From a virus (taxonomy: Duplodnaviria > Heunggongvirae > Uroviricota > Caudoviricetes), in the IMG/VR virus record IMGVR_UViG_3300048588_000114, positions 79,309 to 110,210 of that record: a stretch of 30,902 nucleotides of DNA; one strand, written 5' to 3'. This document shows positions 1-10,176 of this stretch, piece by piece. The notes under the pieces are model-generated. The model had not been told where the DNA came from. It did no database searches and was given only the letters and a program-made list of their open reading frames with translations. The position numbers and the translations under genes are program-made. Numbering within the stretch: the stretch's first letter is position 1; each line of letters begins with the position of its first letter.

Positions 1-735
1 CCTACGGAACTCATCTCTCAATATCTATTTGGCCTACCTCTCTGTACAAGAGACGGTAGGCAAATAGAGAGTTCCACAATCACTCAGAAAATTCTCACTG
101 TTCAGCAGCGAATCGAACGCTACCTAATGGTCAAACTTAGGAGACAGTACTTCTCTGAACAAAGGGATTTTATGAGAGGTGACTATTTCTCATGGGGTTT
201 CACTTCTTTATCCTATCCTTTGGTAGAGCCTCTTAGCTTAACCGGGTGGATAAATTCAACTAAGCAAACAACTTTCCCATTGAATTGGATTTCTCGTGCC
301 AAGAGCAGTCAGGAAGACCATCAAACCAATAGGAATTTACATATTATACCGGGGGGTGATTCCTCTCCTACGACAAATTCAGTAGTGTTTTTAGGTATTG
401 TTCCTAATTTGAATTACTTAGGTATGCAAAACATCCCTAATTACTGGACTGTTGAGTATGTCACTGGATTCAAGCAAGTGCCTCCTGATATCTTAGACGC
501 TGTTGGTAAAATGGCCGCTATTGAGATTTTAGCTATGATAGGCGATTTAGTCCTTCACCCAGGAATATCATCTACTTCTCTAAGTTTTGATGGACTTTCT
601 GAAAGTCTCTCTACTACTAAGAGCGGTCAAACCAGTGCTTACTCAGCCCGGATGAAGGGGTATGCTGATGATCTGAAGACACAGCTGAGTGATCTGAAGA
701 ATTTTTACAAAGGAATGTCTTTCATGACTATGTAG
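1..735 (+). CDS. Head-tail adaptor (neck) protein, 5'-truncated by the window edge
   Basis: Frame 1 is open from base 1 (PTELISQYLFGLPLCTRDGRQIESS...), so the true start lies before the window and 127 is internal. The motifs YLFG, VEYVTG..VPPDI and PGISSTSLSFDGLSESLSTT match my recall of the phage K/SPO1-type adaptor C-terminus. It lies directly before the stopper-like gene. Confidence 0.75.
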   Translation, partial: PTELISQYLFGLPLCTRDGRQIESSTITQKILTVQQRIERYLMVKLRRQYFSEQRDFMRGDYFSWGFTSLSYPLVEPLSLTGWINSTKQTTFPLNWISRAKSSQEDHQTNRNLHIIPGGDSSPTTNSVVFLGIVPNLNYLGMQNIPNYWTVEYVTGFKQVPPDILDAVGKMAAIEILAMIGDLVLHPGISSTSLSFDGLSESLSTTKSGQTSAYSARMKGYADDLKTQLSDLKNFYKGMSFMTM

Positions 736-738
736 ATT

Positions 739-1695
739 ATGGCTAATAGAGATTCACATAAGAAACCTGTAATCTATGAAGTACCACCAGAAACTGGTGC
801 TTTACCTGTTGCTACCCTAAATAAGCAGGATTTTGATGATACAGTATTTAGTAAAGGCTATGATGCATACATAGAGAAGGCGATGAAATGCGCTTGTGTT
901 CTATCGGAGAATGGCAATGCCTTGCCAAGCTGTAGGAACTGTGGTGGAACAAGCTGGATATTCATAAATAAGAGACGCACCAAAGTGGTGTCTCAGTCTA
1001 TGAATAAGCAAACCAAATTTCTTCAATGGTCAGAAGCCGATAGGGGAACGGTGTCAATAACTGTCCGGGCAGAGGATAGTGTAGCGTTCATGGATAGGGT
1101 AACGAATTTGAACCTTGTATCAACTTATTCTGAGACACTAAAGGTGCAGAAGTTGGATGGTAAATTAGTGGCTTATACCATATATCCTATCATTGTTCCT
1201 ACGGAGGCATATATTTTCGATAAAGATGACAAACCGCTTAGACAAATACAGCTTGGCGTTGATTTCACAATTGAAGATAATAGGATTATATTAGACTACG
1301 GAAAATACAAAGGTCTGTTGGTGGAAAAGATTGCTGTATCCATTAGATATACGCACTACCCTCAGTATCATGTATTAGACATAACAAGAGATGCGGTTGC
1401 TCAAAGAGGCGCAGCCCATTCTTGCGAGAATCCCGAAGTTAATGATCAATATGCTCCACTACCGATACACTTTGTAGCAAGAAAAGCTCATTTTCTTTTA
1501 GATGAGCCTAATAATCGTGGTTTAGGTCTATTTGATAATACATATATACCTAATAATACATTGACACTATTGATGGATTCAATGCCATTTAGTCTAAATT
1601 ATTGGATAATTAGGAGCACCGCAGCAGAAATAGCTGAGTCAATAACATCATTGGATGACCCAACTAAACAAAGTACTATAAAAAATTTACTATAA
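739..1695 (+). CDS. Head closure/stopper neck protein with Cys cluster (CAC-x10-CxxC)
   Basis: Contains KGYDAYIEKAMKCAC...CRNCGG, YHVLDI and LPIHFVARK, which parallel the Kayvirus post-adaptor protein (LWE..Y.CPC...CP.CHG). Synteny agrees. Confidence 0.7.
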   Translation: MANRDSHKKPVIYEVPPETGALPVATLNKQDFDDTVFSKGYDAYIEKAMKCACVLSENGNALPSCRNCGGTSWIFINKRRTKVVSQSMNKQTKFLQWSEADRGTVSITVRAEDSVAFMDRVTNLNLVSTYSETLKVQKLDGKLVAYTIYPIIVPTEAYIFDKDDKPLRQIQLGVDFTIEDNRIILDYGKYKGLLVEKIAVSIRYTHYPQYHVLDITRDAVAQRGAAHSCENPEVNDQYAPLPIHFVARKAHFLLDEPNNRGLGLFDNTYIPNNTLTLLMDSMPFSLNYWIIRSTAAEIAESITSLDDPTKQSTIKNLL

Positions 1696-1720: not shown

Positions 1721-4252
1721 ATGAAAAACAGCAATTCCCAGTCAGTATTTATATTCAAAGGGTATAACACATACAAAGATAGTTCAATCCATATTGTTGC
1801 CTATAAGAGCATTTTAGGAGTGACGGATGCTCAACAAACAACAGGGGTTGATTTGACTACCCGTTATACTTTGATGAGCATTCAATATAGTGACTATATC
1901 AAGAAACATCCTATTAGCTTTCATCTTAGAGAAGGTTTTGTATATTCAGTTCAAGAAATTGCTAATGCTGCAGAAACAATAGATTTTGAGGCATATGTAT
2001 CAGACCCTACTGATGGAACTATAAATCCAATATCCACATTATTCTATTTGATGGGAACCACTCCATTAGGAGGTGAAGGGGCTGGAGCTATGTTGACTAT
2101 TAGGCCTGGTAATGGAGGCACTATATCTTCTAAATTTCTACCAATAAATGCTGGAGCTAATCAATCTAATGCTGTAAATGTGGTAAAGGCAACAAATGGG
2201 AAACTATATTCAACAACAATTATTGGTGGTTTAAGTAATTTTGGCACTCTATTTGAATATGATCAAGCTACTAATACATATAGGGTTTTAGTTCATTTTT
2301 CTGGTAATACTGGAAATTTTCAAGGCACTCAACCGTGTTGTCTAATTCAAGCAGCTAATGGAAAACTTTATGGTGGAACTAATATAGGAGGTGCTAATAA
2401 TTTGGGCGCTCTATTTGAGTATGATTTAGTAACTTCAACCTATACTGTAAAAGTAAATTTAACAGGAAATGTTGGGACGCAATTAGGGGCTAGAATTACT
2501 GGGAGAATGGTTGAATCAGGTGGTAAATTATATGGTACTTGTCGTTTAGGCGGCACTAATAATTTAGGAACAATTTTTGAATATGATTATGTGAACAATG
2601 TGTTTACTAAATTGTATAATTTTGCAACTGCTGATGGGTCTAATCCGGCAGGTGGTTTATTTGAGACTTCTCCCGGCGTGTTCTATGGCATGTGTAATGC
2701 TGCGGGGTCTGGTTCACCAGCAGGTGGAACAATTTTTTCTTATGATAAAAACACTTCTACTTTTACTAAGTGGTATGATTTTTTAACTGGGGCAGCAAAT
2801 CCGGGGGCTAATCCAAATGGAGTTTTTGTGATGGTTGGAGGTAAATTGTATGGATTCGCAGCATCAGGAGGAACTGGTAATAGTGGAACCATATTTGAAC
2901 ATGTTATTGGAACCTCTACAATTACTAAATTACATGATGCTAATATAAATACTGTAGGTGGCTCATTGAATGGAAGCCCAGTTGTGGGTTCTGATGGGCT
3001 TATTTATGGTGTTAAAAGAACTTTAACCGGAGCCCAAGGAACTCTATTCTCATTCAATGTAACTGGCAGTGTTTATACTAATTTGGCTACATTTGTAACG
3101 GGTGTGTCCACTGGGCAGAACCCCCAAGGTACTCTTTTAGAGACTTCTCCCGGTGTGTTCTATGGTGTGTCTACTAGTGGTGGAAGGGCTAATGGAGGCA
3201 CTATTTTTGAGTTTCTAACTGCTGGGAATGTTTTGACTAAAAAAATTGATTTGAATTATGGCGATGTTAAGCAAATTAGAGGTTCTGTAATACGCTCTTC
3301 TAATGGTAAGTACTACGGCATGTCTGCTCAGGGTGGCGAAAATGTTACTGACAATACTAGCGGATGCATATTTGAGTTTATTCCTTCTACGGGTGTTTTT
3401 GTAAAATTAGCTAATTTATCTGCTTCAACGGGTATAGGCCCAACAGGCCGCTTGGTTGAGCATTCAAATGGCTTATTATATGGAATAACAGCAACAACAT
3501 TAATTTCATTCAATAAGAATACTAATGTTGTAACTAATTTACAAGGTAGTCTAGGTAATTCCACGCCAGGGACATCACCAGTGATTGCTCCTAATGGTAA
3601 ATTATATTGGAAAACATCGGGTGATGGAGTTAATTTTTGCGGGAGATTGTGGGAATATGACCCCTTTTCAGGCGTTGCAACTAATAAAGGAGATTTTGTT
3701 AATGCTTTAAATGGCGATGACCCTAATTGGTCTTGGTTTAATGATGCTAATGAATTTCTGCTTTATGATGGGTATCTATATGCTTCTGCTCTATTTAATG
3801 GTTTCTCTATTAAAAGATACAATGCTAGTAATAATACTTATGAATGGCAAACAGGGTATGTTCAAGGCCCATCTCATCCAGCAACAGACCCTTTTGGCCC
3901 TCAAGGAACTCTGACATTAGCTAGCAACGGTTTGATGTATGGTCTTTCTGGCGGTGGAGCAAATAATTGCGGAACGCTGTACTCATTTAATCCTATAACT
4001 AAGGAAGTTAGGAAATGCGTTGATTTAGATGCCTATGGAAGCACTTCATCAACTGGTCAAAAAGGTCATATTACAGAATTCAATAAGAAACTTTATTGGA
4101 TGTCTGGCTTAGGTGGGGCAAATTCAGTTGGTAGTGTTTTTGAGTATGATATTGAAACACAGGAGACTAAATTGTTGCTTGATTTTAATTTATATACCAC
4201 CGGAGGCTCTAATACATACATAAGTTCTAAATTTGTGGTAATAAGAAAATAA
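1721..4252 (+). CDS. GloVer (Gloeo_Verruco, TIGR03803-type) tandem-repeat beta-propeller protein, about 14 blades, with an approximately 105-aa N-terminal domain
   Basis: 13 full ~50-55 aa repeats of consensus (N/G)GKLYG...GG....GT(I/L)FE(Y/F)D, plus one partial N-terminal blade. No signal peptide and no C-terminal T9SS sorting domain seen. Confidence 0.85.
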   Translation: MKNSNSQSVFIFKGYNTYKDSSIHIVAYKSILGVTDAQQTTGVDLTTRYTLMSIQYSDYIKKHPISFHLREGFVYSVQEIANAAETIDFEAYVSDPTDGTINPISTLFYLMGTTPLGGEGAGAMLTIRPGNGGTISSKFLPINAGANQSNAVNVVKATNGKLYSTTIIGGLSNFGTLFEYDQATNTYRVLVHFSGNTGNFQGTQPCCLIQAANGKLYGGTNIGGANNLGALFEYDLVTSTYTVKVNLTGNVGTQLGARITGRMVESGGKLYGTCRLGGTNNLGTIFEYDYVNNVFTKLYNFATADGSNPAGGLFETSPGVFYGMCNAAGSGSPAGGTIFSYDKNTSTFTKWYDFLTGAANPGANPNGVFVMVGGKLYGFAASGGTGNSGTIFEHVIGTSTITKLHDANINTVGGSLNGSPVVGSDGLIYGVKRTLTGAQGTLFSFNVTGSVYTNLATFVTGVSTGQNPQGTLLETSPGVFYGVSTSGGRANGGTIFEFLTAGNVLTKKIDLNYGDVKQIRGSVIRSSNGKYYGMSAQGGENVTDNTSGCIFEFIPSTGVFVKLANLSASTGIGPTGRLVEHSNGLLYGITATTLISFNKNTNVVTNLQGSLGNSTPGTSPVIAPNGKLYWKTSGDGVNFCGRLWEYDPFSGVATNKGDFVNALNGDDPNWSWFNDANEFLLYDGYLYASALFNGFSIKRYNASNNTYEWQTGYVQGPSHPATDPFGPQGTLTLASNGLMYGLSGGGANNCGTLYSFNPITKEVRKCVDLDAYGSTSSTGQKGHITEFNKKLYWMSGLGGANSVGSVFEYDIETQETKLLLDFNLYTTGGSNTYISSKFVVIRK
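2663..3165 (+). repeat. 26-nt direct repeat GAGACTTCTCCCGG(C/T)GTGTTCTATGG at 2663-2688 and 3140-3165 (both encode ETSPGVFYG)
   Basis: Read directly: 25/26 identical. The spacing is 477 nt = 159 codons = three repeat units. Confidence 0.9.
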
Positions 4253-4270: not shown

Positions 4271-4492
4271 ATGGAAAAGTACAAAGGTTCATTCTGGAAA
4301 CTCTTAGTTGAGAGTAAAAGAATATGGGGAGTATTGTTTATTTTACTAATAATTTGTTGTGTGACCTATCAGGCACTGTTCAATGATTGGACTTACATTT
4401 ATGGGACATTAGGCTTCTGTGTCCCGTTGGTATTGCTACTAATAATGAATAGTATCCATCTAAAGGAATTAAGAAACGGCAAATCATCTTAG
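4271..4492 (+). CDS. Small membrane protein with two hydrophobic segments (holin-like topology)
   Basis: 73 aa. Hydrophobic stretches IWGVLFILLIICCVTY and IYGTLGFCVPLVLLLIM, with a basic N- and C-terminus. A-rich leader (ctaaataaaATG). Confidence 0.6.
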   Translation: MEKYKGSFWKLLVESKRIWGVLFILLIICCVTYQALFNDWTYIYGTLGFCVPLVLLLIMNSIHLKELRNGKSS

Positions 4493-4497
4493 TATTT

Positions 4498-5001
4498 ATG
4501 GAAACAGCAATTTACATAATCATATCAGTTGTTCTGATATTTAGTGTTAGAGTATTGGATGCCATTAAAAGTGGTTGTTTTTATGCCGCACGAAGAAGAG
4601 AGGAGCCAAAAGAATTGAAGAAATATATGGATAATCTTCATTTTGTACAAACGCCTTTCTGGTATTGTCTATTTGGAGCATTTTTCATGTTGCTGTTCAC
4701 CATATTTAGACTAATAAACCCGGAAGTGAGTCTTGTATCAATTTCTTTAAATCTACTATATTCTTGGCTGATAGCTCAAGGTACTTCTGCCATAGCTGGA
4801 TATCACTATCAAAAATATATAAATATTGGTAGCGGCGTACCAGCAATTGACCCTAATGAAAATAAGAAAATGGAGTTTGCTAATCCATTTACCAGTAAAA
4901 CAATATGGATAAGAAGATTTTGGAGAGGAAAAATTAGATACTATCTACCATTTATATGGTTGCCGATTGTATTATTAGTGATTTATTTAGCTATTTTCTA
5001 G
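4498..5001 (+). CDS. Hypothetical multi-pass membrane protein
   Basis: 167 aa with about 4 hydrophobic segments (AIYIIISVVLIFSV; FWYCLFGAFFMLLFTIF; LVSISLNLLYSWLIA; LPFIWLPIVLLVIYLAIF). Confidence 0.65.
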   Translation: METAIYIIISVVLIFSVRVLDAIKSGCFYAARRREEPKELKKYMDNLHFVQTPFWYCLFGAFFMLLFTIFRLINPEVSLVSISLNLLYSWLIAQGTSAIAGYHYQKYINIGSGVPAIDPNENKKMEFANPFTSKTIWIRRFWRGKIRYYLPFIWLPIVLLVIYLAIF

Positions 5002-5005
5002 CTTA

Positions 5006-5797
5006 ATGAAAGGGAGAATCAAAATAGATTTAAGTGAAGTAATTGAGGAACTTGCTCTTTCTAAAAAGCAGACTGAGAAAATGTGTAAGGCCGTCTTGAG
5101 CGGCGTGTCCCAGGAGATAGCAAACAATTGGAGGCAATTGGCCTCTAAAGAGCTTAAATCAAGCCGAGCAGACTATATCCGAGGGATAGTTGTAATTGAG
5201 GAAGGAAGATTGACGAATGCCATAATACTAAAAGGGGCATTCAACAATAAAATGGAAAGTGGCTCTGCTCCATGGGATATGAAGAAATTCTTTGAAAAAT
5301 CCCCTAAAGCTAAGAGAACAAAGAATGGCGGGTGGTATTTGCGCATACCGTTTAGATTCTCCACACCAGATGCTTTAGGAGAAAATAGTGCTTTTTCTAA
5401 TTCAATGCCTAAAGAGGTTTATGATGTGGCTAAGAATCTAACTCCTGAGAAAACTACATTAGGAGGGACTAGATTACAGAAAGGCAAAGGCATGACTAGA
5501 GATGAGATTCCTGTAGCCTTTAGGGATGTCATAACAAGAAAAGGCCGTGATGGTTTTGAAGACTATACTCATAAGAGTTCAATCTATGAGGGTATGTTCA
5601 GGACAGAGAGAATGAAGTCAAATGGGCAGCGAGAAAGCACCTATATGACGATTCGTACAGCTTCCTCCAATAGTGATCCAGCCTCATGGATTCATCCCGG
5701 TTTTAAGCCGTTGAACTTAGCGGATAAGGCACAAACGATGACTGATGTGGATATGATAGTGAATAATATTGTGGATAAATTTATAGCCAACCTATGA
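5006..5797 (+). CDS. Neck/tail-completion protein (Herelleviridae-type, Ne1/HK97 gp10-like position)
   Basis: KFFEKSPKAKRTKNGGWYLRIPFR and YMTIRTASSNSDPASWI match the conserved motifs I recall from the phage K protein preceding the terminator (KK..KDGGWYL.VPIR; FRTVSSKSPASSWI). Confidence 0.7.
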   Translation: MKGRIKIDLSEVIEELALSKKQTEKMCKAVLSGVSQEIANNWRQLASKELKSSRADYIRGIVVIEEGRLTNAIILKGAFNNKMESGSAPWDMKKFFEKSPKAKRTKNGGWYLRIPFRFSTPDALGENSAFSNSMPKEVYDVAKNLTPEKTTLGGTRLQKGKGMTRDEIPVAFRDVITRKGRDGFEDYTHKSSIYEGMFRTERMKSNGQRESTYMTIRTASSNSDPASWIHPGFKPLNLADKAQTMTDVDMIVNNIVDKFIANL

Positions 5798-6492
5798 GCA
5801 ATACAGCGATACTAATACCTGAAATTGAAATCTACGAAACTCTAACTAATATATTGGAGTTCGTTAAGAAAGACTACGAATCCAAGCCTGATAAAAAGAA
5901 AACCTTTCTTTACCATGTTTTTGGGAAACGCCCGGATGGACGTGACCTGAAGCTAGGAACGATGAATCTATATGATCAGGCTGTAGATATAATCATTAAC
6001 GGAGGGAAAGAAAAGAAGCGACAAGTGGAGGTTACAGTGGGCTATAATCTATCAAGAATGGCCTTACCTACATTTCATATTGTAATGCCTTCTGAAAGCC
6101 CTAAAAATGCTGGAATAGGGGATAATCGGGGTTACACTGAGCCTATCCTTGATGTGACTAATAGTGTGAAATTCGATACCGTTACACAGGATTCTTCTGT
6201 AGTTTACACCATCATCATCACATCAGACAATGTAAATGAGTGTTTAATCCTATATAATTTCTTGAAGGCGGCATTCTTAGGATTTAAGCTACAATTAGAA
6301 CTATCCGGCTTTCAAAACGTTCGTAGTGGCGGCACTGATCTAAATATTTCCGAAGACCTCATACCAGTCCATATTTATCACCGTAGCTTCAATCTGAGCT
6401 TTGACTACGACTATACAACCGTAGATATGTTTGGCGAAGGCTATATCAAAACTATGAGTTTCGACATCAAGCCAGTTGAGAAGACAGACTAA
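5794..6492 (+). CDS. Tail terminator / tail-to-neck junction protein
   Basis: EVTVGYN motif, beta-rich C-terminal half, position just before the small protein and sheath as in K/SPO1. ATGA overlap with the previous gene. Confidence 0.65.
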   Translation: MSNTAILIPEIEIYETLTNILEFVKKDYESKPDKKKTFLYHVFGKRPDGRDLKLGTMNLYDQAVDIIINGGKEKKRQVEVTVGYNLSRMALPTFHIVMPSESPKNAGIGDNRGYTEPILDVTNSVKFDTVTQDSSVVYTIIITSDNVNECLILYNFLKAAFLGFKLQLELSGFQNVRSGGTDLNISEDLIPVHIYHRSFNLSFDYDYTTVDMFGEGYIKTMSFDIKPVEKTD

Positions 6493-6763: not shown

Positions 6764-8743
6764 ATGAAAGTCATAACATTTGATGGTAAGCAAATAATTG
6801 AGCCGGGCGCATACTCTTCCGTTGTAGGAGGAGAGCCGGATGCACCGGAGGCAGCAACCTCTGGAAATTGTGTATTCATAGATACTGGCTCAATGGCTAA
6901 GTATGGATATGGTTCCGGAATCACTGGCTCTCAGGCCAGCGGAGCAAACGCAATCTACCCTTTTACTAATCTTGATGACTTCAAGAAAGCCATCGGTGGT
7001 GGAGTTATGTGGGATGCGTCAAATTGGCTTTGGAAGCCGTCTAAAGCCCTGAATGTTCAGGGTATTCAAAAATTATTCCTCATTCACGCCCGGACTACAA
7101 CTAAGGCTTCGCTAACAATGACCTTTGTAGGAGGTGGTACGAAAGCATCAGGCACTATTACTTTTGCTGCTCTGCCGCTTGACTTAGCTACAATTACACT
7201 AAACGGCGTGGCATACACCTTTAAAGATACACCAACACTAGCTACTCACATTCAGATAGCCACTTCTATTTCAGAAACAATGGTTAATATTGCTGAGAAG
7301 TTAGCTCAGTCACAGAATGCTTCTTTAACAGTTGCTCAATATATTGCAGAGCCAACATTGCTCCGTGTAGTATATAAGACAGCTGGTACTGGTGGTAATG
7401 CTTATACCTTAGCTGCTTCAGTGGCTACTCCATCAGCAGGAACTTTAACTGGTGGATTGGCTGGCTCAGGCGCTAATGGTGGTGTATTTGTTGTAGACGC
7501 TATCACAGAAGGAGTAGGCGCTAATGGTCTTTTAGATCCAACATCTTCTGATCTTTATACTGGTTTTGCGATGAAATTGGTTGCTGGTGTGGTTGATCCA
7601 GCCAAGTTCTCAGTTGAGTTTTATCGTGGTCAATATCGGGGCTTAGATTGGAACAGTGTTCCATTCGATGATATTTCTCGTGCTTTGTCGGCTCCTGTTC
7701 TGTTGGCTAAATCTTCTGAATTCGCCACCTTACAAGAGCTATTTGACTGGGCTGATGAGGATGTATCATTTGCGCTTTGGTTCACTCGTAATAAGACCGC
7801 TTCAAGCATTAACGCTACAGGCGCACTTCTTGCCGCTGATACAACTACATATTCTGGCTATAACCTCTTTATCAAAGGCTCTGAAAGCTATAGTCCTTCT
7901 GACCTCACGAAGGTTTATGAGTATATCAAAGAATTAGATTATAGCTTCATGCTTAGTGATAAGTATGAGGATGATGCTGATGATACCGTTAACTATCAGC
8001 ACATCTCCCATATTAATCTAAAGAGCGAATTCAAACGCACCATGTATATTGGTGGAGGAGCCGATGCTACTAAGTTCTCTCAATCTGGTGGTTCCATTCC
8101 AGTGGCGGCTACATTTGATGATGAGAATGTTCACATTGTTCATAGCCGTACCGGGAAAACCAACAGTAATAATGTGTTAAAGGAATACCCTACCTTGTAT
8201 CATGCCGCTGCTGCTTTAGGACGTGCTGCTGGAGCCACTGCTCAAACGCCAATGACTTTCAAAGACCTCGATTTTACTATGGTTAAGCACATTCTATCTG
8301 AGGATGAGCGTAAAACAGCTATTCAAGCTGGTGTTCAGCACCTACGTTCTGTAGATGGAATCAGTGGTTTGGTGGTTAATCTGGATGGTAATACTAAGCA
8401 ACGTAACAAGCAAGATATTTATGCTGACGGTACAAGCCCATTCGGGTCTATTGTGAGAATTAAAAATCTTCTTAACCGTACAATTGCTAAGAACTGCCGT
8501 GTTAGATTCGTAGGACAAAACGCTAACCTAGCCTCACCAGCAGATGTGAAGTCATACATTGAGACAATTCTCTCACAATCTACCTGTACTAAGACAGAAG
8601 ACAACTTGATTTTGTCTTCTAAGAATGTGAAGGCAGTCTTGAATGGCTCTGACTACAGAGTAACTTATGGATTTGTTCCAAATGGCCCGGTTAACAGGTT
8701 ATTCATCACTGGAACAATGTTCAATGTGTCCGCTGCTGCATAA
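6764..8743 (+). CDS. Contractile tail sheath protein (with an inserted domain at about aa 126-234)
   Basis: 659 aa. The N-terminus F.GKQIIEPGAY and the C-terminal FVG.....ASPADVKSYIETIL...YRVTYGFVPNGPVNRLFITG are typical of sheaths. Directly upstream of the tube gene. Confidence 0.9.
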   Translation: MKVITFDGKQIIEPGAYSSVVGGEPDAPEAATSGNCVFIDTGSMAKYGYGSGITGSQASGANAIYPFTNLDDFKKAIGGGVMWDASNWLWKPSKALNVQGIQKLFLIHARTTTKASLTMTFVGGGTKASGTITFAALPLDLATITLNGVAYTFKDTPTLATHIQIATSISETMVNIAEKLAQSQNASLTVAQYIAEPTLLRVVYKTAGTGGNAYTLAASVATPSAGTLTGGLAGSGANGGVFVVDAITEGVGANGLLDPTSSDLYTGFAMKLVAGVVDPAKFSVEFYRGQYRGLDWNSVPFDDISRALSAPVLLAKSSEFATLQELFDWADEDVSFALWFTRNKTASSINATGALLAADTTTYSGYNLFIKGSESYSPSDLTKVYEYIKELDYSFMLSDKYEDDADDTVNYQHISHINLKSEFKRTMYIGGGADATKFSQSGGSIPVAATFDDENVHIVHSRTGKTNSNNVLKEYPTLYHAAAALGRAAGATAQTPMTFKDLDFTMVKHILSEDERKTAIQAGVQHLRSVDGISGLVVNLDGNTKQRNKQDIYADGTSPFGSIVRIKNLLNRTIAKNCRVRFVGQNANLASPADVKSYIETILSQSTCTKTEDNLILSSKNVKAVLNGSDYRVTYGFVPNGPVNRLFITGTMFNVSAAA

Positions 8744-9361: not shown

Positions 9362-9781
9362 ATGGGAGAATTAGTGAAAACAATGGAAGTAAAGGTGAAG
9401 GATAAGAAATACATCATTCCTTTCCCTAAGGTGCGTCATCAGCTTGAAATACAAAGTAGGAGACACCTATTGGCTGGCGGTACTTATGGTCAACAGGAGC
9501 GTTCTGGCTCTGTAGAAGCAGAATTCAATCTAAATCTTGTAGATGCGTTGGCGCACATCACAGTACTCTGTCCTGAGATACTAAGAGATTTAATGGGGAC
9601 AAAGGCGGGGGAAACGCCTGACCCATATGATATGGACTTAGCTGATTCTAAATGGGTGGTGATGGCCTATGATCAATTTGCTGAGTGGTATCTTGAAATT
9701 AAAGAAGAGGTAAATAGCGAAATGATTAAAGCCCGGAAGGAAAGAGATGCCGCTAAAGCCAATACAACGGCCAAATCTTAG
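9362..9781 (+). CDS. Tail assembly chaperone 1 (start reassigned from 9287 to 9362; 9332 is the alternative)
   Basis: Position between tube and tape measure. The ORF-track start 9287 runs through the terminator hairpin, whereas ATG 9362 has an A-rich leader (aatcaaaacaaaATG). Confidence 0.6.
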   Translation: MGELVKTMEVKVKDKKYIIPFPKVRHQLEIQSRRHLLAGGTYGQQERSGSVEAEFNLNLVDALAHITVLCPEILRDLMGTKAGETPDPYDMDLADSKWVVMAYDQFAEWYLEIKEEVNSEMIKARKERDAAKANTTAKS

Positions 9782-9816
9782 GCAATCGTTTCTCTCAAGC
9801 AGAATAAAATGGTGAA

Positions 9817-10176
9817 TTGGGCTATCTTAACGACATAAGGAACTTCATAATCGAATGGGATGTGAAGCATCCTGTAGATCATTGGTGGCGAACTAAATAC
9901 GGAATTCCGTTTGGTTCGCCATCTCATTTAGATATGGACATGATTGACATGAGAATTGACTTTGAAGAAGAAGAAATGCTTAGGAGAGTTAGTGAAGAGA
10001 GAGAGCGCAGAGACGAAGCAGCCGAGAATGAAGCACTGGGGCTCAATCACCTCACAGGTTCAGGTAAAGAGATTGTACATATGTCTAAAGACGAGATTGA
10101 AGAAGACTACGAAAATTTAGACTTGTCGCAGTTTACTGATGATAAAACTCTAAAAGAATCTAACAAAGATGGCTAA
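9817..10176 (+). CDS. Tail assembly chaperone 2 / pre-tape-measure protein (TTG start)
   Basis: 119 aa with W-rich HPVDHWWRTKYGIPF and an acidic C-terminus. Overlaps the tape measure start by 8 nt. An in-frame TAA at 9805 limits any upstream extension. Confidence 0.6.
   Translation: MGYLNDIRNFIIEWDVKHPVDHWWRTKYGIPFGSPSHLDMDMIDMRIDFEEEEMLRRVSEERERRDEAAENEALGLNHLTGSGKEIVHMSKDEIEEDYENLDLSQFTDDKTLKESNKDG

Follow-up and report, generated by a model that had tools for sequence, protein, structure and literature searches.

The locus considered here raises the question of why the complete genome (110 kb) of a phage of Bacteroidota-type bacteria carries, among its neck genes, a protein built of GloVer repeats, and where such a protein would act. 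As far as we know, GloVer proteins are abundant on Bacteroidota surfaces and have neither a known function nor a solved structure. In the window, i.e., the whole stretch of 30,902 nucleotides that was analyzed, the gene is an open reading frame at 1721..4252 (+ strand) encoding 843 aa, in which an N-terminal domain (N-domain) is fused to a predicted module of 14 GloVer repeats.

The family assignment was clear. A search with the TIGR03803 (GloVer) HMM gave 227.3 bits (E 7.4e-69) in nine stretches, against a curated cut-off of 44 bits, and in the genome HMM search single repeats reached up to 45.6 bits. This was the check named by the first-pass annotation, which had recognized the repeats from the sequence alone. 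The family's tandem pattern, G-K-L-Y-G ... G-G ... G-x-I-F-E-Y-D in repeats of about 50 aa, is present in the protein: motif mapping located 13 units with G-x-L-Y-G / G-x-I-F-E-Y between aa 160 and aa 810, one about every 53 aa. The 13 clear repeats occupy aa 151–843 (2171..4249, + strand), each corresponding to a four-stranded beta-propeller blade, with about 20 aa between the last blade and the protein end and no sorting domain. The preceding stretch, aa 103–150 (2027..2170, + strand; pLDDT 24–31), matches repeat 1 of the bacterial protein P0021 column for column (phage 103–823 vs. P0021 19–730), and we assign it as a diverged first repeat, which could possibly double as a flexible linker. 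Judged by these alignments, the protein has 14 GloVer repeats, 13 clear and one diverged, in agreement with the earlier count of 13 complete repeats plus a partial first one.

As a whole, the protein is isolated among known phage sequences. No PHROGs family was found for it, and neither blastn with the first 8 kb nor tblastn with the 843-aa protein gave a match in 50,697 GenBank phage records. A search of IMG/VR for loci related to the full protein found none; a separate degenerate DNA motif scan was non-exhaustive.

The AlphaFold2 model of the protein (pLDDT 76.8) contained 13 confident four-stranded blades. Its top Foldseek matches were tandem 7-bladed propellers (BT4663 4a2l, UTP proteins, GH74 and EML1), which spanned 715–770 columns, with TM values of just 0.25–0.47. 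Based on the model, an arrangement of the 14 blades as two 7-bladed propellers, with the ring closed by KFVVIR, is no more than plausible, because the first repeat and the C-terminus (aa 107–149 and 825–843) were modelled poorly, with low pLDDT. The monomer prediction, proposed earlier as a check of the fold, thus bears out the propeller blades, whereas the first blade and the C-terminal closure fall within low-pLDDT regions.

The best relatives of the GloVer module are T9SS cargo proteins of Bacteroidota, which are collinear with it at 30–36% identity over nearly the whole span between their signal peptide and their C-terminal domain (CTD). The same 14-repeat module is present in 'choice-of-anchor tandem repeat GloVer-containing' T9SS cargo, e.g., P0021 and P0084 (Winogradskyella helgolandensis). 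The bacterial proteins have a signal peptide and a Por_Secre_tail domain (PF18962, present in all five homologues tested), whereas the phage protein has neither: a hydropathy scan revealed no hydrophobic N-terminal stretch in the 843 aa, and no match to PF18962 or another anchor domain was obtained. It lacks, then, both the combination of signal peptide and C-terminal sorting or anchor domain that marks 'choice of anchor' GloVer proteins, including the homologues, and the PF18962 domain that marks T9SS type A cargo. Instead, it begins with a phage-type N-domain of 100 aa and, unlike that of the bacterial cargo, its gene belongs to a phage neck module. By sequence comparison, the GloVer module is a complete host-type module from a Bacteroidota T9SS surface protein that has lost both tags. 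The first-pass annotation had described the protein as being without a signal peptide or a C-terminal sorting tail and as a captured host surface module, and both statements stand. A recent transfer was considered and rejected, with 36% as the best identity to any protein and a GC content of 0.34–0.40 vs. 0.40–0.44 in the flanks.

Other Bacteroidota phages have likewise borrowed host surface modules. 'Cryophage' encodes a T9SS cargo with an intact CTD (PMC7468147), and the viral contig L036 encodes a protein with GloVer repeats, an InlB-B-repeat and PF18962. These proteins retain their secretion tags and presumably leave the cell through the host's export pathway, whereas the 843-aa protein is without both and is encoded among structural genes.

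The genes around the fusion gene belong to the head–tail connector module, which follows the head genes for the portal, the protease and the major capsid protein. The head–tail adaptor gene (1..735, + strand; phrog_772) starts 56 nt before the window, and its full product of 263 aa matches the adaptor chain 8q01_b of phage 812 (1.2e-8) and shares 30–37% identity with SPO1 gp6.3 and with proteins from Bacteroides and Chryseobacterium phages. The product of the stopper gene (739..1695, + strand; 318 aa, phrog_1004) matches chain 8q01_S at 3e-5 and conserves a tetra-cysteine motif, CxC...CxxC (C51/C53/C65/C68), which is the hallmark of the gp97 stopper (PMC12886913). The fusion gene lies 25 nt downstream of the stopper gene on the same strand and 18 nt upstream of an ORF of 73 aa (4271..4492, + strand); no excess of promoters or terminators was detected around it. 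According to the hydropathy scan, the 73-aa product, which has no PHROG or Pfam match, contains two hydrophobic helices and a charged C-terminus, and the next gene (4498..5001, + strand) encodes a polytopic membrane protein of 167 aa, with no PHROGs family and with membrane-protein-like neighbours in the ESM Atlas. The right border of the insert is formed by two conserved genes in the neck/tail-completion position (5006..6492, + strand; 263 and 232 aa, phrog_16819), whose products have no PDB sequence match, and the tail sheath gene follows (6764..8743, + strand; phrog_279), 70% identical to its homologue in the related phage L010. Thus, the fusion gene is situated between the stopper and the conserved pre-sheath genes, i.e., where a neck appendage gene would be expected, and the placement between stopper and neck/tail-completion gene given in the first pass is confirmed by the 8q01_S match and the tetra-cysteine motif on one side and by p263 bordering the insert on the other. 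PDB sequence searches with the 263-aa and 232-aa products of these genes, the 167-aa protein, P0123 (see below), a 936-aa protein of L010 and the L112 cargo were uninformative, and for this reason the tail terminator has no sequence-based assignment.

In 63 of 78 related IMG/VR viral contigs the stopper gene directly adjoins the next conserved gene, and the same adjacency is found in three GenBank relatives (L045, L046 and L047), in line with the near-adjacency that the first pass had noted for K-like phages. Because these two genes adjoin in most relatives, the GloVer gene lies within a rarely filled insertion hot spot. Inserts of at least 3 kb were found in four phages, all of which have C-terminally extended stoppers of 318–355 aa; where the two genes adjoin, no stopper exceeds 285 aa. 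Relatives lacking an insert have a median stopper length of 271 aa (maximum 285), compared with 318 aa here, where the extension amounts to about 35–45 aa over most relatives. The length correlation is broken by Bacteroides phage SJC03, with a 317-aa stopper and no insert. The cargo differs between phages: the hot spot of L010 also encodes the above 936-aa protein, which has a Laminin_G_3 lectin-type domain, the inserts of L112 and L127 carry unrelated cargo, and other relatives have small unrelated ORFs at the stopper junction, including one of 96 aa with three TM segments. Since the present insert has two membrane-protein genes, and the 167-aa family (at least 17 members) recurs elsewhere, including in unrelated contexts on the viral contigs L049 and L050 (391 kb and 189 kb), the hot spot also takes non-structural cargo; and because these genes share the insert with the fusion gene, position by itself is no proof of virion incorporation.

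The N-domain (aa 1–102; 1721..2026, + strand) is predicted to be a small alpha/beta domain (pLDDT 79, pTM 0.74) without a signal peptide. That it is unrelated to the repeats, as was supposed from the outset, is reflected in the bacterial homologues, which cover at most 87% of the 843-aa query. Five relatives of the N-domain were found in 1.84 billion representatives, all of them metagenomic, viral or of unidentified origin; P0122 is located on a 105.9-kb contig and P0127 on a 91.7-kb contig. Three of the five are stand-alone proteins of 105–129 aa, and a domain standing alone need not anchor anything, which speaks against an anchor role. In the other two, P0122 and P0123, an N-domain with 46–49% identity is fused to a C-terminal domain of 275 aa other than GloVer. 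One of these two sits at the same locus in L010, where the next gene encodes a protein 44% identical to the 167-aa protein. A conserved N-terminus with exchangeable distal domains, as in an anchor, is therefore apparent from three architectures in all, with the genomic context visible for one relative (L010). The search with the N-domain alone, which had been recommended in the first pass, was informative in this respect: the domain recurs at the same locus with another C-terminus and stands alone elsewhere, and on these comparisons we regard it as a separate, modular phage module.

Fold and sequence searches placed the N-domain near no characterized protein. In the PDB no fold with Z>=5 was obtained (the best hits, T4 Dmd among them, reached Z 4.6 at most, which we regard as chance level), nor was there an Ig-like match, and BFVD gave nothing at E<=0.001; the best BFVD entry, a 'Cellulase' of an uncultured siphovirus (E 0.011), is a lead only. 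No sequence or fold match to known neck, whisker, decoration or fibre-anchor proteins was found, and no coiled coil or trimeric stalk was evident in the fusion protein. The ESM Atlas neighbours were unnamed viral clusters only. Metagenome scans with the N-domain alignment and with P0122 yielded nothing useful beyond a distant fragment of 1.4 kb (L044), and an IMG/VR scan for stand-alone N-domains found none. The giant proteins P0125 and P0126 were rejected as homologues, their match being a short tandem repeat that resembles aa 26–58.

We suggest the following role for the fusion protein. The gene would yield a cytoplasmic chimera, presumably expressed late together with its neighbours, in which the N-domain of about 100 aa is followed by the 14-repeat GloVer propeller, probably folded as two 7-bladed propellers. 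Without export signals, the propeller could reach the exterior only as part of the virion or when lysis releases the cell contents. The N-domain would most likely attach the protein to the particle, either at the neck or close to it, possibly by docking on the C-terminal stopper extension that is specific to the lineage. Phage fibres usually consist of a conserved anchor and a variable tip; the N-domain occurs after the stopper with differing C-termini and therefore fits this layout. The propeller could then act as an accessory adhesin, comparable to a collar, whisker or neck passage structure, and may bind a host-surface or environmental polymer and thereby help adsorption, probably not as the primary receptor-binding protein. 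To the general proposal, an accessory adhesin that the virion displays and that is anchored close to its neck, we give an even chance. A more specific version is rather doubtful, namely a modular neck-borne adsorption device of a Bacteroidota myovirus in which stripped T9SS cargo is held by the anchor of about 100 aa on the stopper extension and the modules are interchangeable.

It is also conceivable, although unlikely in our judgment, that the gene is a non-virion accessory gene (moron), for which the site after the stopper is used only for its tolerance of insertions; the propeller would then stay cytoplasmic or be freed at lysis and serve as a host-factor binder, a decoy or an adhesin. The accompanying membrane-protein genes, with a 167-aa family known from other large viral contigs, the small ORFs at the junction in relatives, the unrelated cargo of L112 and L127, and an N-domain without a match to structural proteins would all agree with this. 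However, an extracellular-type binding module of 740 aa from which both tags are precisely gone makes an awkward cytoplasmic factor, the module is fused to a phage-type domain common to a relative at the same site, and large inserts accompany extended stoppers. The last correlation also counts against a capsid-surface decoration like Hoc, in which the N-domain would bind the capsid lattice and the propeller would provide weak polymer adherence. The position of the gene just downstream of the portal, protease and major capsid protein genes is compatible with such a decoration, and docking at the neck and docking at the capsid are not distinguished by the present data; still, the insert adjoins the stopper gene and not the capsid gene, and the N-domain has no Ig-like fold match, which makes this scheme improbable.

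The first-pass annotation suggested a primary receptor-binding protein at the neck, pointing out that no long fibre gene was visible in the baseplate module. Beta-propellers are receptor-binding platforms in some phages, the GloVer module is the largest predicted binding module of the structural region, and the protein has a sub-threshold match to PF21311 (E 0.0022). However, the argument from the absence of a fibre gene is weakened by two candidate proteins in the baseplate module, one of 536 aa and one of 249 aa that weakly matches phrog_1591 ('tail fiber'). Furthermore, a contractile tail requires baseplate-coupled triggering, and the junction is empty in 63 of the 78 relatives, so the backbone infects without the insert; we consider a primary role very improbable. 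Finally, the 73-aa protein, with two TM segments in a holin-like topology, and the polytopic 167-aa protein might replace Sec plus T9SS in a tag-independent export that brings the propeller to the infected cell's periplasm or surface. Linkage of the three genes is tight, and L010 too has a gene of the 167-aa family next to its N-domain gene. However, the 167-aa family also occurs with no N-domain or GloVer gene nearby, PHROGs searches linked neither protein to a known holin or exporter, and the idea is purely topological; it is hardly to be expected to hold.

An accessory adhesin near the neck, as favoured here, would have parallels in known neck systems. In lactococcal 936-group phages, the neck passage structure gene is accessory, showing presence/absence, and immunogold EM placed its product at the neck (PMC4759559). 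These genes, too, are accessory genes in a recombination hot spot of the head–tail joining region; however, the 936-group phages are siphoviruses of Firmicutes with the neck protein located on the virion, whereas the GloVer fusion is known from its gene alone, and the neck passage structure has no sequence relation to it and no described propeller. The neck of the K-like phage 812 (Herelleviridae) consists of the gp96 adaptor, the gp97 stopper, the decoration proteins gp164 and gp56, and an unassigned whisker density (PMC12886913; PDB 8Q01). The two phages share a homologous adaptor, a tetra-cysteine stopper and the same gene order up to the sheath, and the phage 812 neck carries extra proteins; however, the phage 812 decoration genes are located elsewhere in its genome, and no phage 812 chain was among the PDB sequence matches of the 843-aa protein.

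That the whole module was kept, both tags were removed and a phage domain was added implies that the module has a ligand worth reaching from the virion surface, and the phage fusion offers a handle on the ligands of GloVer proteins. In a large clade of SPO1/K-like Bacteroidota phages, the locus also defines a seldom-used site for insertions directly behind the stopper gene. If the inserts are neck appendages, exchangeable adhesins would have a natural place to dock here, and the locus might help to identify the neck whiskers in Herelleviridae structures. In favour of the accessory-adhesin proposal, GloVer repeats also occur in another viral protein: in contig L019, about seven of them are present in the C-terminal half of a YadA-head-like protein, the gene for which lies within a cluster of paralogous fibre-like genes.

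The source record, a 110,210-bp IMG/VR virus with direct terminal repeats that is estimated to be complete, is a contractile-tailed phage based on PHROG scans of the window and 15 kb upstream; the window is the final 30.9 kb of the record (79309-110210). The phage genes follow the order portal, prohead protease, major capsid protein (phrog_752), neck genes with an insert, tail sheath, tube, baseplate wedge, helicase, DnaB and primase. The adaptor (window 1-735) is 30–37% identical to proteins of Bacteroides phages (SJC03 and the DAC series), Chryseobacterium phage MA9V-3, and SPO1- and K-like Herelleviridae; its resemblance to the Bacteroides and Chryseobacterium phage proteins fits a Bacteroidota-type host.

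The open frame 1721-4252 (+) in the insert encodes an 843-aa protein. It matched the NCBIfam model TIGR03803 ('choice-of-anchor tandem repeat GloVer-containing protein') with an E-value of 7.4e-69 and 227 bits against a cut-off of 44, in line with the GloVer assignment made from the sequence alone, and Pfam gave only sub-threshold propeller-type matches (Str_synth, Phage_RBD_prop and Kelch). Motif mapping found 13 repeat units spaced by about 53 aa, the same number of complete repeats as counted in the first-pass annotation. A partial first blade had also been proposed there. The corresponding stretch exists (aa 103-150), but the pairwise alignment, in which phage aa 103-823 are collinear with aa 19-730 of a typical bacterial homologue (P0021, 840 aa), indicates a whole, diverged first repeat, so that the module, as read from the sequence, has 14 repeats. 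In the AlphaFold2 model (64 input sequences, mean pLDDT 76.8), aa 150-825 hold 13 four-stranded blades, and its first Foldseek matches in the PDB were double 7-bladed propellers, namely the BT4663/BT4673 periplasmic sensor domains, UTP proteins of the 90S pre-ribosome, GH74 enzymes and EML1. The anticipated propeller fold is recovered in this model, apart from low confidence at aa 107-149 and 825-843, and two 7-bladed rings would be the natural reading of the module.

A search of 5.8 billion clustered proteins yielded 636 relatives, the best being 30–36% identical; they cover at most 87% of the phage protein and leave out its first ~100 residues. Nearly all carry PF18962 (Por_Secre_tail), which was C-terminal in all five homologues rescanned; the named ones are mostly from Bacteroidota, and the GloVer family consensus opens with a signal-peptide-like segment. 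As had been noted from the sequence, the phage protein lacks both tags: the Pfam scan detected no PF18962, hydropathy revealed no hydrophobic N-terminal segment, and the chain ends about 20 residues past the last blade. The phage protein thus retains the whole mature module, with the signal peptide and the sorting domain removed. A recent capture was rejected because the best identity is 36% and the GC content is close to that of the flanks.

The adaptor, a 263-aa protein, matched the phage 812 adaptor (chain 8q01_b, 1.2e-8), and the 318-aa protein encoded at 739-1695 matched the neighbouring neck chain 8q01_S (3e-5). The latter contains CxC...CxxC (C51, C53, C65 and C68), which is kept in the related phage L010/L052 (seen in L010), MA9V-3, SJC03 and SPO1 gp6.4; a tetra-cysteine loop has been described as a hallmark of the gp97 stopper (PMC12886913). 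In SPO1, MA9V-3, SJC03 and an uncultured faecal phage, the stopper gene is followed directly by homologues of window genes 5006-5797 (encoding p263, a different 263-aa protein) and 5794-6492, a small ORF and the sheath gene. Using a profile of p263, we collected 80 IMG/VR loci, 78 of which have the stopper and p263 genes in the same orientation. These genes are adjacent (<100 nt) in 63 loci, lie 197–810 nt apart with one or two small ORFs in 12, and are separated by inserts of at least 4.3 kb in three. Thus, the earlier placement of the GloVer gene between two neck genes that are near-adjacent in relatives holds. The 3.3-kb insert of the window phage consists of the GloVer gene, a 73-aa ORF and a 167-aa ORF. 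It was also observed that the homologue of 5794-6492 (232 aa) in locus L122 (5537-7330) has 597 aa, with an extra C-terminal ~370 aa; the conserved pre-sheath protein can carry added domains too.

When aa 1-110 were compared exhaustively with 1.84 billion representatives using HMMER, only five credible relatives of the N-domain emerged. Two of them, P0122 (381 aa) and P0123 (374 aa), are 48–49% identical to the phage protein over the first 102 residues and continue into a different ~275-aa domain; P0124 (105 aa), P0127 and P0128 (129 aa each) consist of little more than the N-domain. The domain was modelled as a small alpha/beta fold (pLDDT 79, pTM 0.74), for which PDB representatives offered nothing convincing (best Z 4.6) and BFVD no match at E<=0.001; no second copy was found elsewhere in the phage genome. 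Two giant proteins, P0125 (1722 aa) and P0126 (2655 aa), contain a ~49-aa tandem repeat (L-G-V-x-D-x-x-Q ... D-L ... F-T-L-I-N-L-x-Y) resembling N-domain aa 26-58, a likeness that is probably coincidental or very remote.

The sole N-domain carrier seen in genomic context is L010/L052, whose adaptor, stopper and sheath are 76%, 60% and 70% identical to those of the window phage. Here, the N-domain occurs at the same locus: the junction holds a 9.3-kb insert of ten genes, including a 936-aa protein with a Laminin_G_3 lectin-type domain and a 374-aa N-domain protein followed directly by a homologue (44% identity) of the window 167-aa protein. Absence of the N-domain from this locus in relatives, which would have spoken against the first-pass annotation, is thus countered by one relative. 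The cargo of loci L112 and L127 at this junction is unrelated.

Without an insert, the stopper has 176–285 aa (median 271, 63 loci), and beside large inserts it has 318 aa (window), 340 aa (L010), 320 aa (L112) and 355 aa (L127), with mutually unlike extensions; the exception is SJC03, which lacks an insert yet has a 317-aa stopper. The window stopper ends in 40 aa (aa 279-318, about 1573-1692) that hold a ~20-aa motif (P-F-S-L-N-Y-W-I-x-R-S-T...). A separate 144-aa ORF in the L010 insert (L010 7398-7832) contains two copies of a segment with 42% identity to these 40 aa. The shared stretch resembles a small mobile peptide module, which might serve for docking. The coincidence of long stoppers with large inserts, together with the recurring motif, suggests that the extensions could be docking surfaces for products of the inserted genes.

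The most economical reading, to which we give an even chance, is that the N-domain would fix the protein on the virion, with the propeller serving as an accessory adhesin. There are two closest functional precedents. In lactococcal 936 phages, the accessory neck passage structure genes likewise lie in a head-tail region hot spot, and immunogold EM placed their product at the neck (PMC4759559). The other is the phage 812 neck, with unassigned whisker density and decoration proteins (PMC12886913). Decoration of the capsid by the GloVer protein seems unlikely. The first-pass annotation had proposed a collar/whisker appendage or receptor-binding protein that may be a neck-borne adsorption device. 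We consider a primary receptor-binding role slightly less likely than capsid decoration, because the junction is empty in four fifths of relatives and the baseplate module has its own candidates, e.g., a 536-aa protein common to the window phage and MA9V-3.

A complication overlooked in that annotation is the membrane-protein genes of the insert. The 73-aa ORF (4271-4492), between the GloVer and 167-aa genes, has two hydrophobic helices and a charged C-terminus, a class II holin-like topology; no homologue was seen in L010. The 167-aa polytopic protein (4498-5001), with three or four hydrophobic helices, is one of at least 17 members (161–174 aa) of a well-conserved family with the strongly conserved polar motifs I-K-S-G-C-F-Y-A, N-L-H-x-V-Q-T-P-F-W-Y, Y-Q-G-F-I-N-V-G and F-W-Y-G-K-R-R and no Pfam or PHROG match. 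Besides L010 (6873-7376), it occurs on viral contigs of 391 and 189 kb (L049, 7962-8450; L050, 8001-8489) with no N-domain, GloVer or neck genes around; one may guess at a role in superinfection exclusion or lysis. In L108-L111 and L115, an ORF of 96 aa (about 9718-10008), predicted to have three TM helices, lies exactly at the stopper/p263 junction. Because genes with little likelihood of a structural role also enter this junction, the GloVer protein cannot be taken for a virion protein from its position alone; a non-virion accessory role is perhaps half as likely as particle attachment. Tag-independent export together with the adjacent membrane proteins appears very improbable.

As for other viral sequences, neither tblastn against GenBank phage records nor the PHROG families gave a match to the GloVer protein. 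IMG/VR was scanned with a degenerate motif, and after tblastn and the TIGR03803 cut-off four further records stood out, all linear fragments (CheckV completeness 8–38%). L036 encodes, beside a ribonucleotide reductase gene, a secreted protein of the standard form that includes InlB B-repeats and PF18962. L019 encodes a YadA-head-like protein with ~7 repeats at its C-terminal half; paralogous phrog_25468 genes on either side make the arrangement fibre-like. The L026 GloVer ORF, with no Pfam match, runs off the end of the fetched locus. L014 (IMGVR_UViG_3300034198_015644, 106 kb) has GloVer repeats in giant ORFs with SprB repeats; these frames, 4115 and 4836 aa long and not called as genes, contain 35 TIGR03803 matches and lie in a record classed as viral (CheckV 32%) that could be host DNA or encode a very large phage adhesin. 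Phage-borne T9SS cargo has already been reported with intact tags (PMC7468147); in contrast, the tag-less, N-domain-fused GloVer form in a complete phage genome appears to be new.
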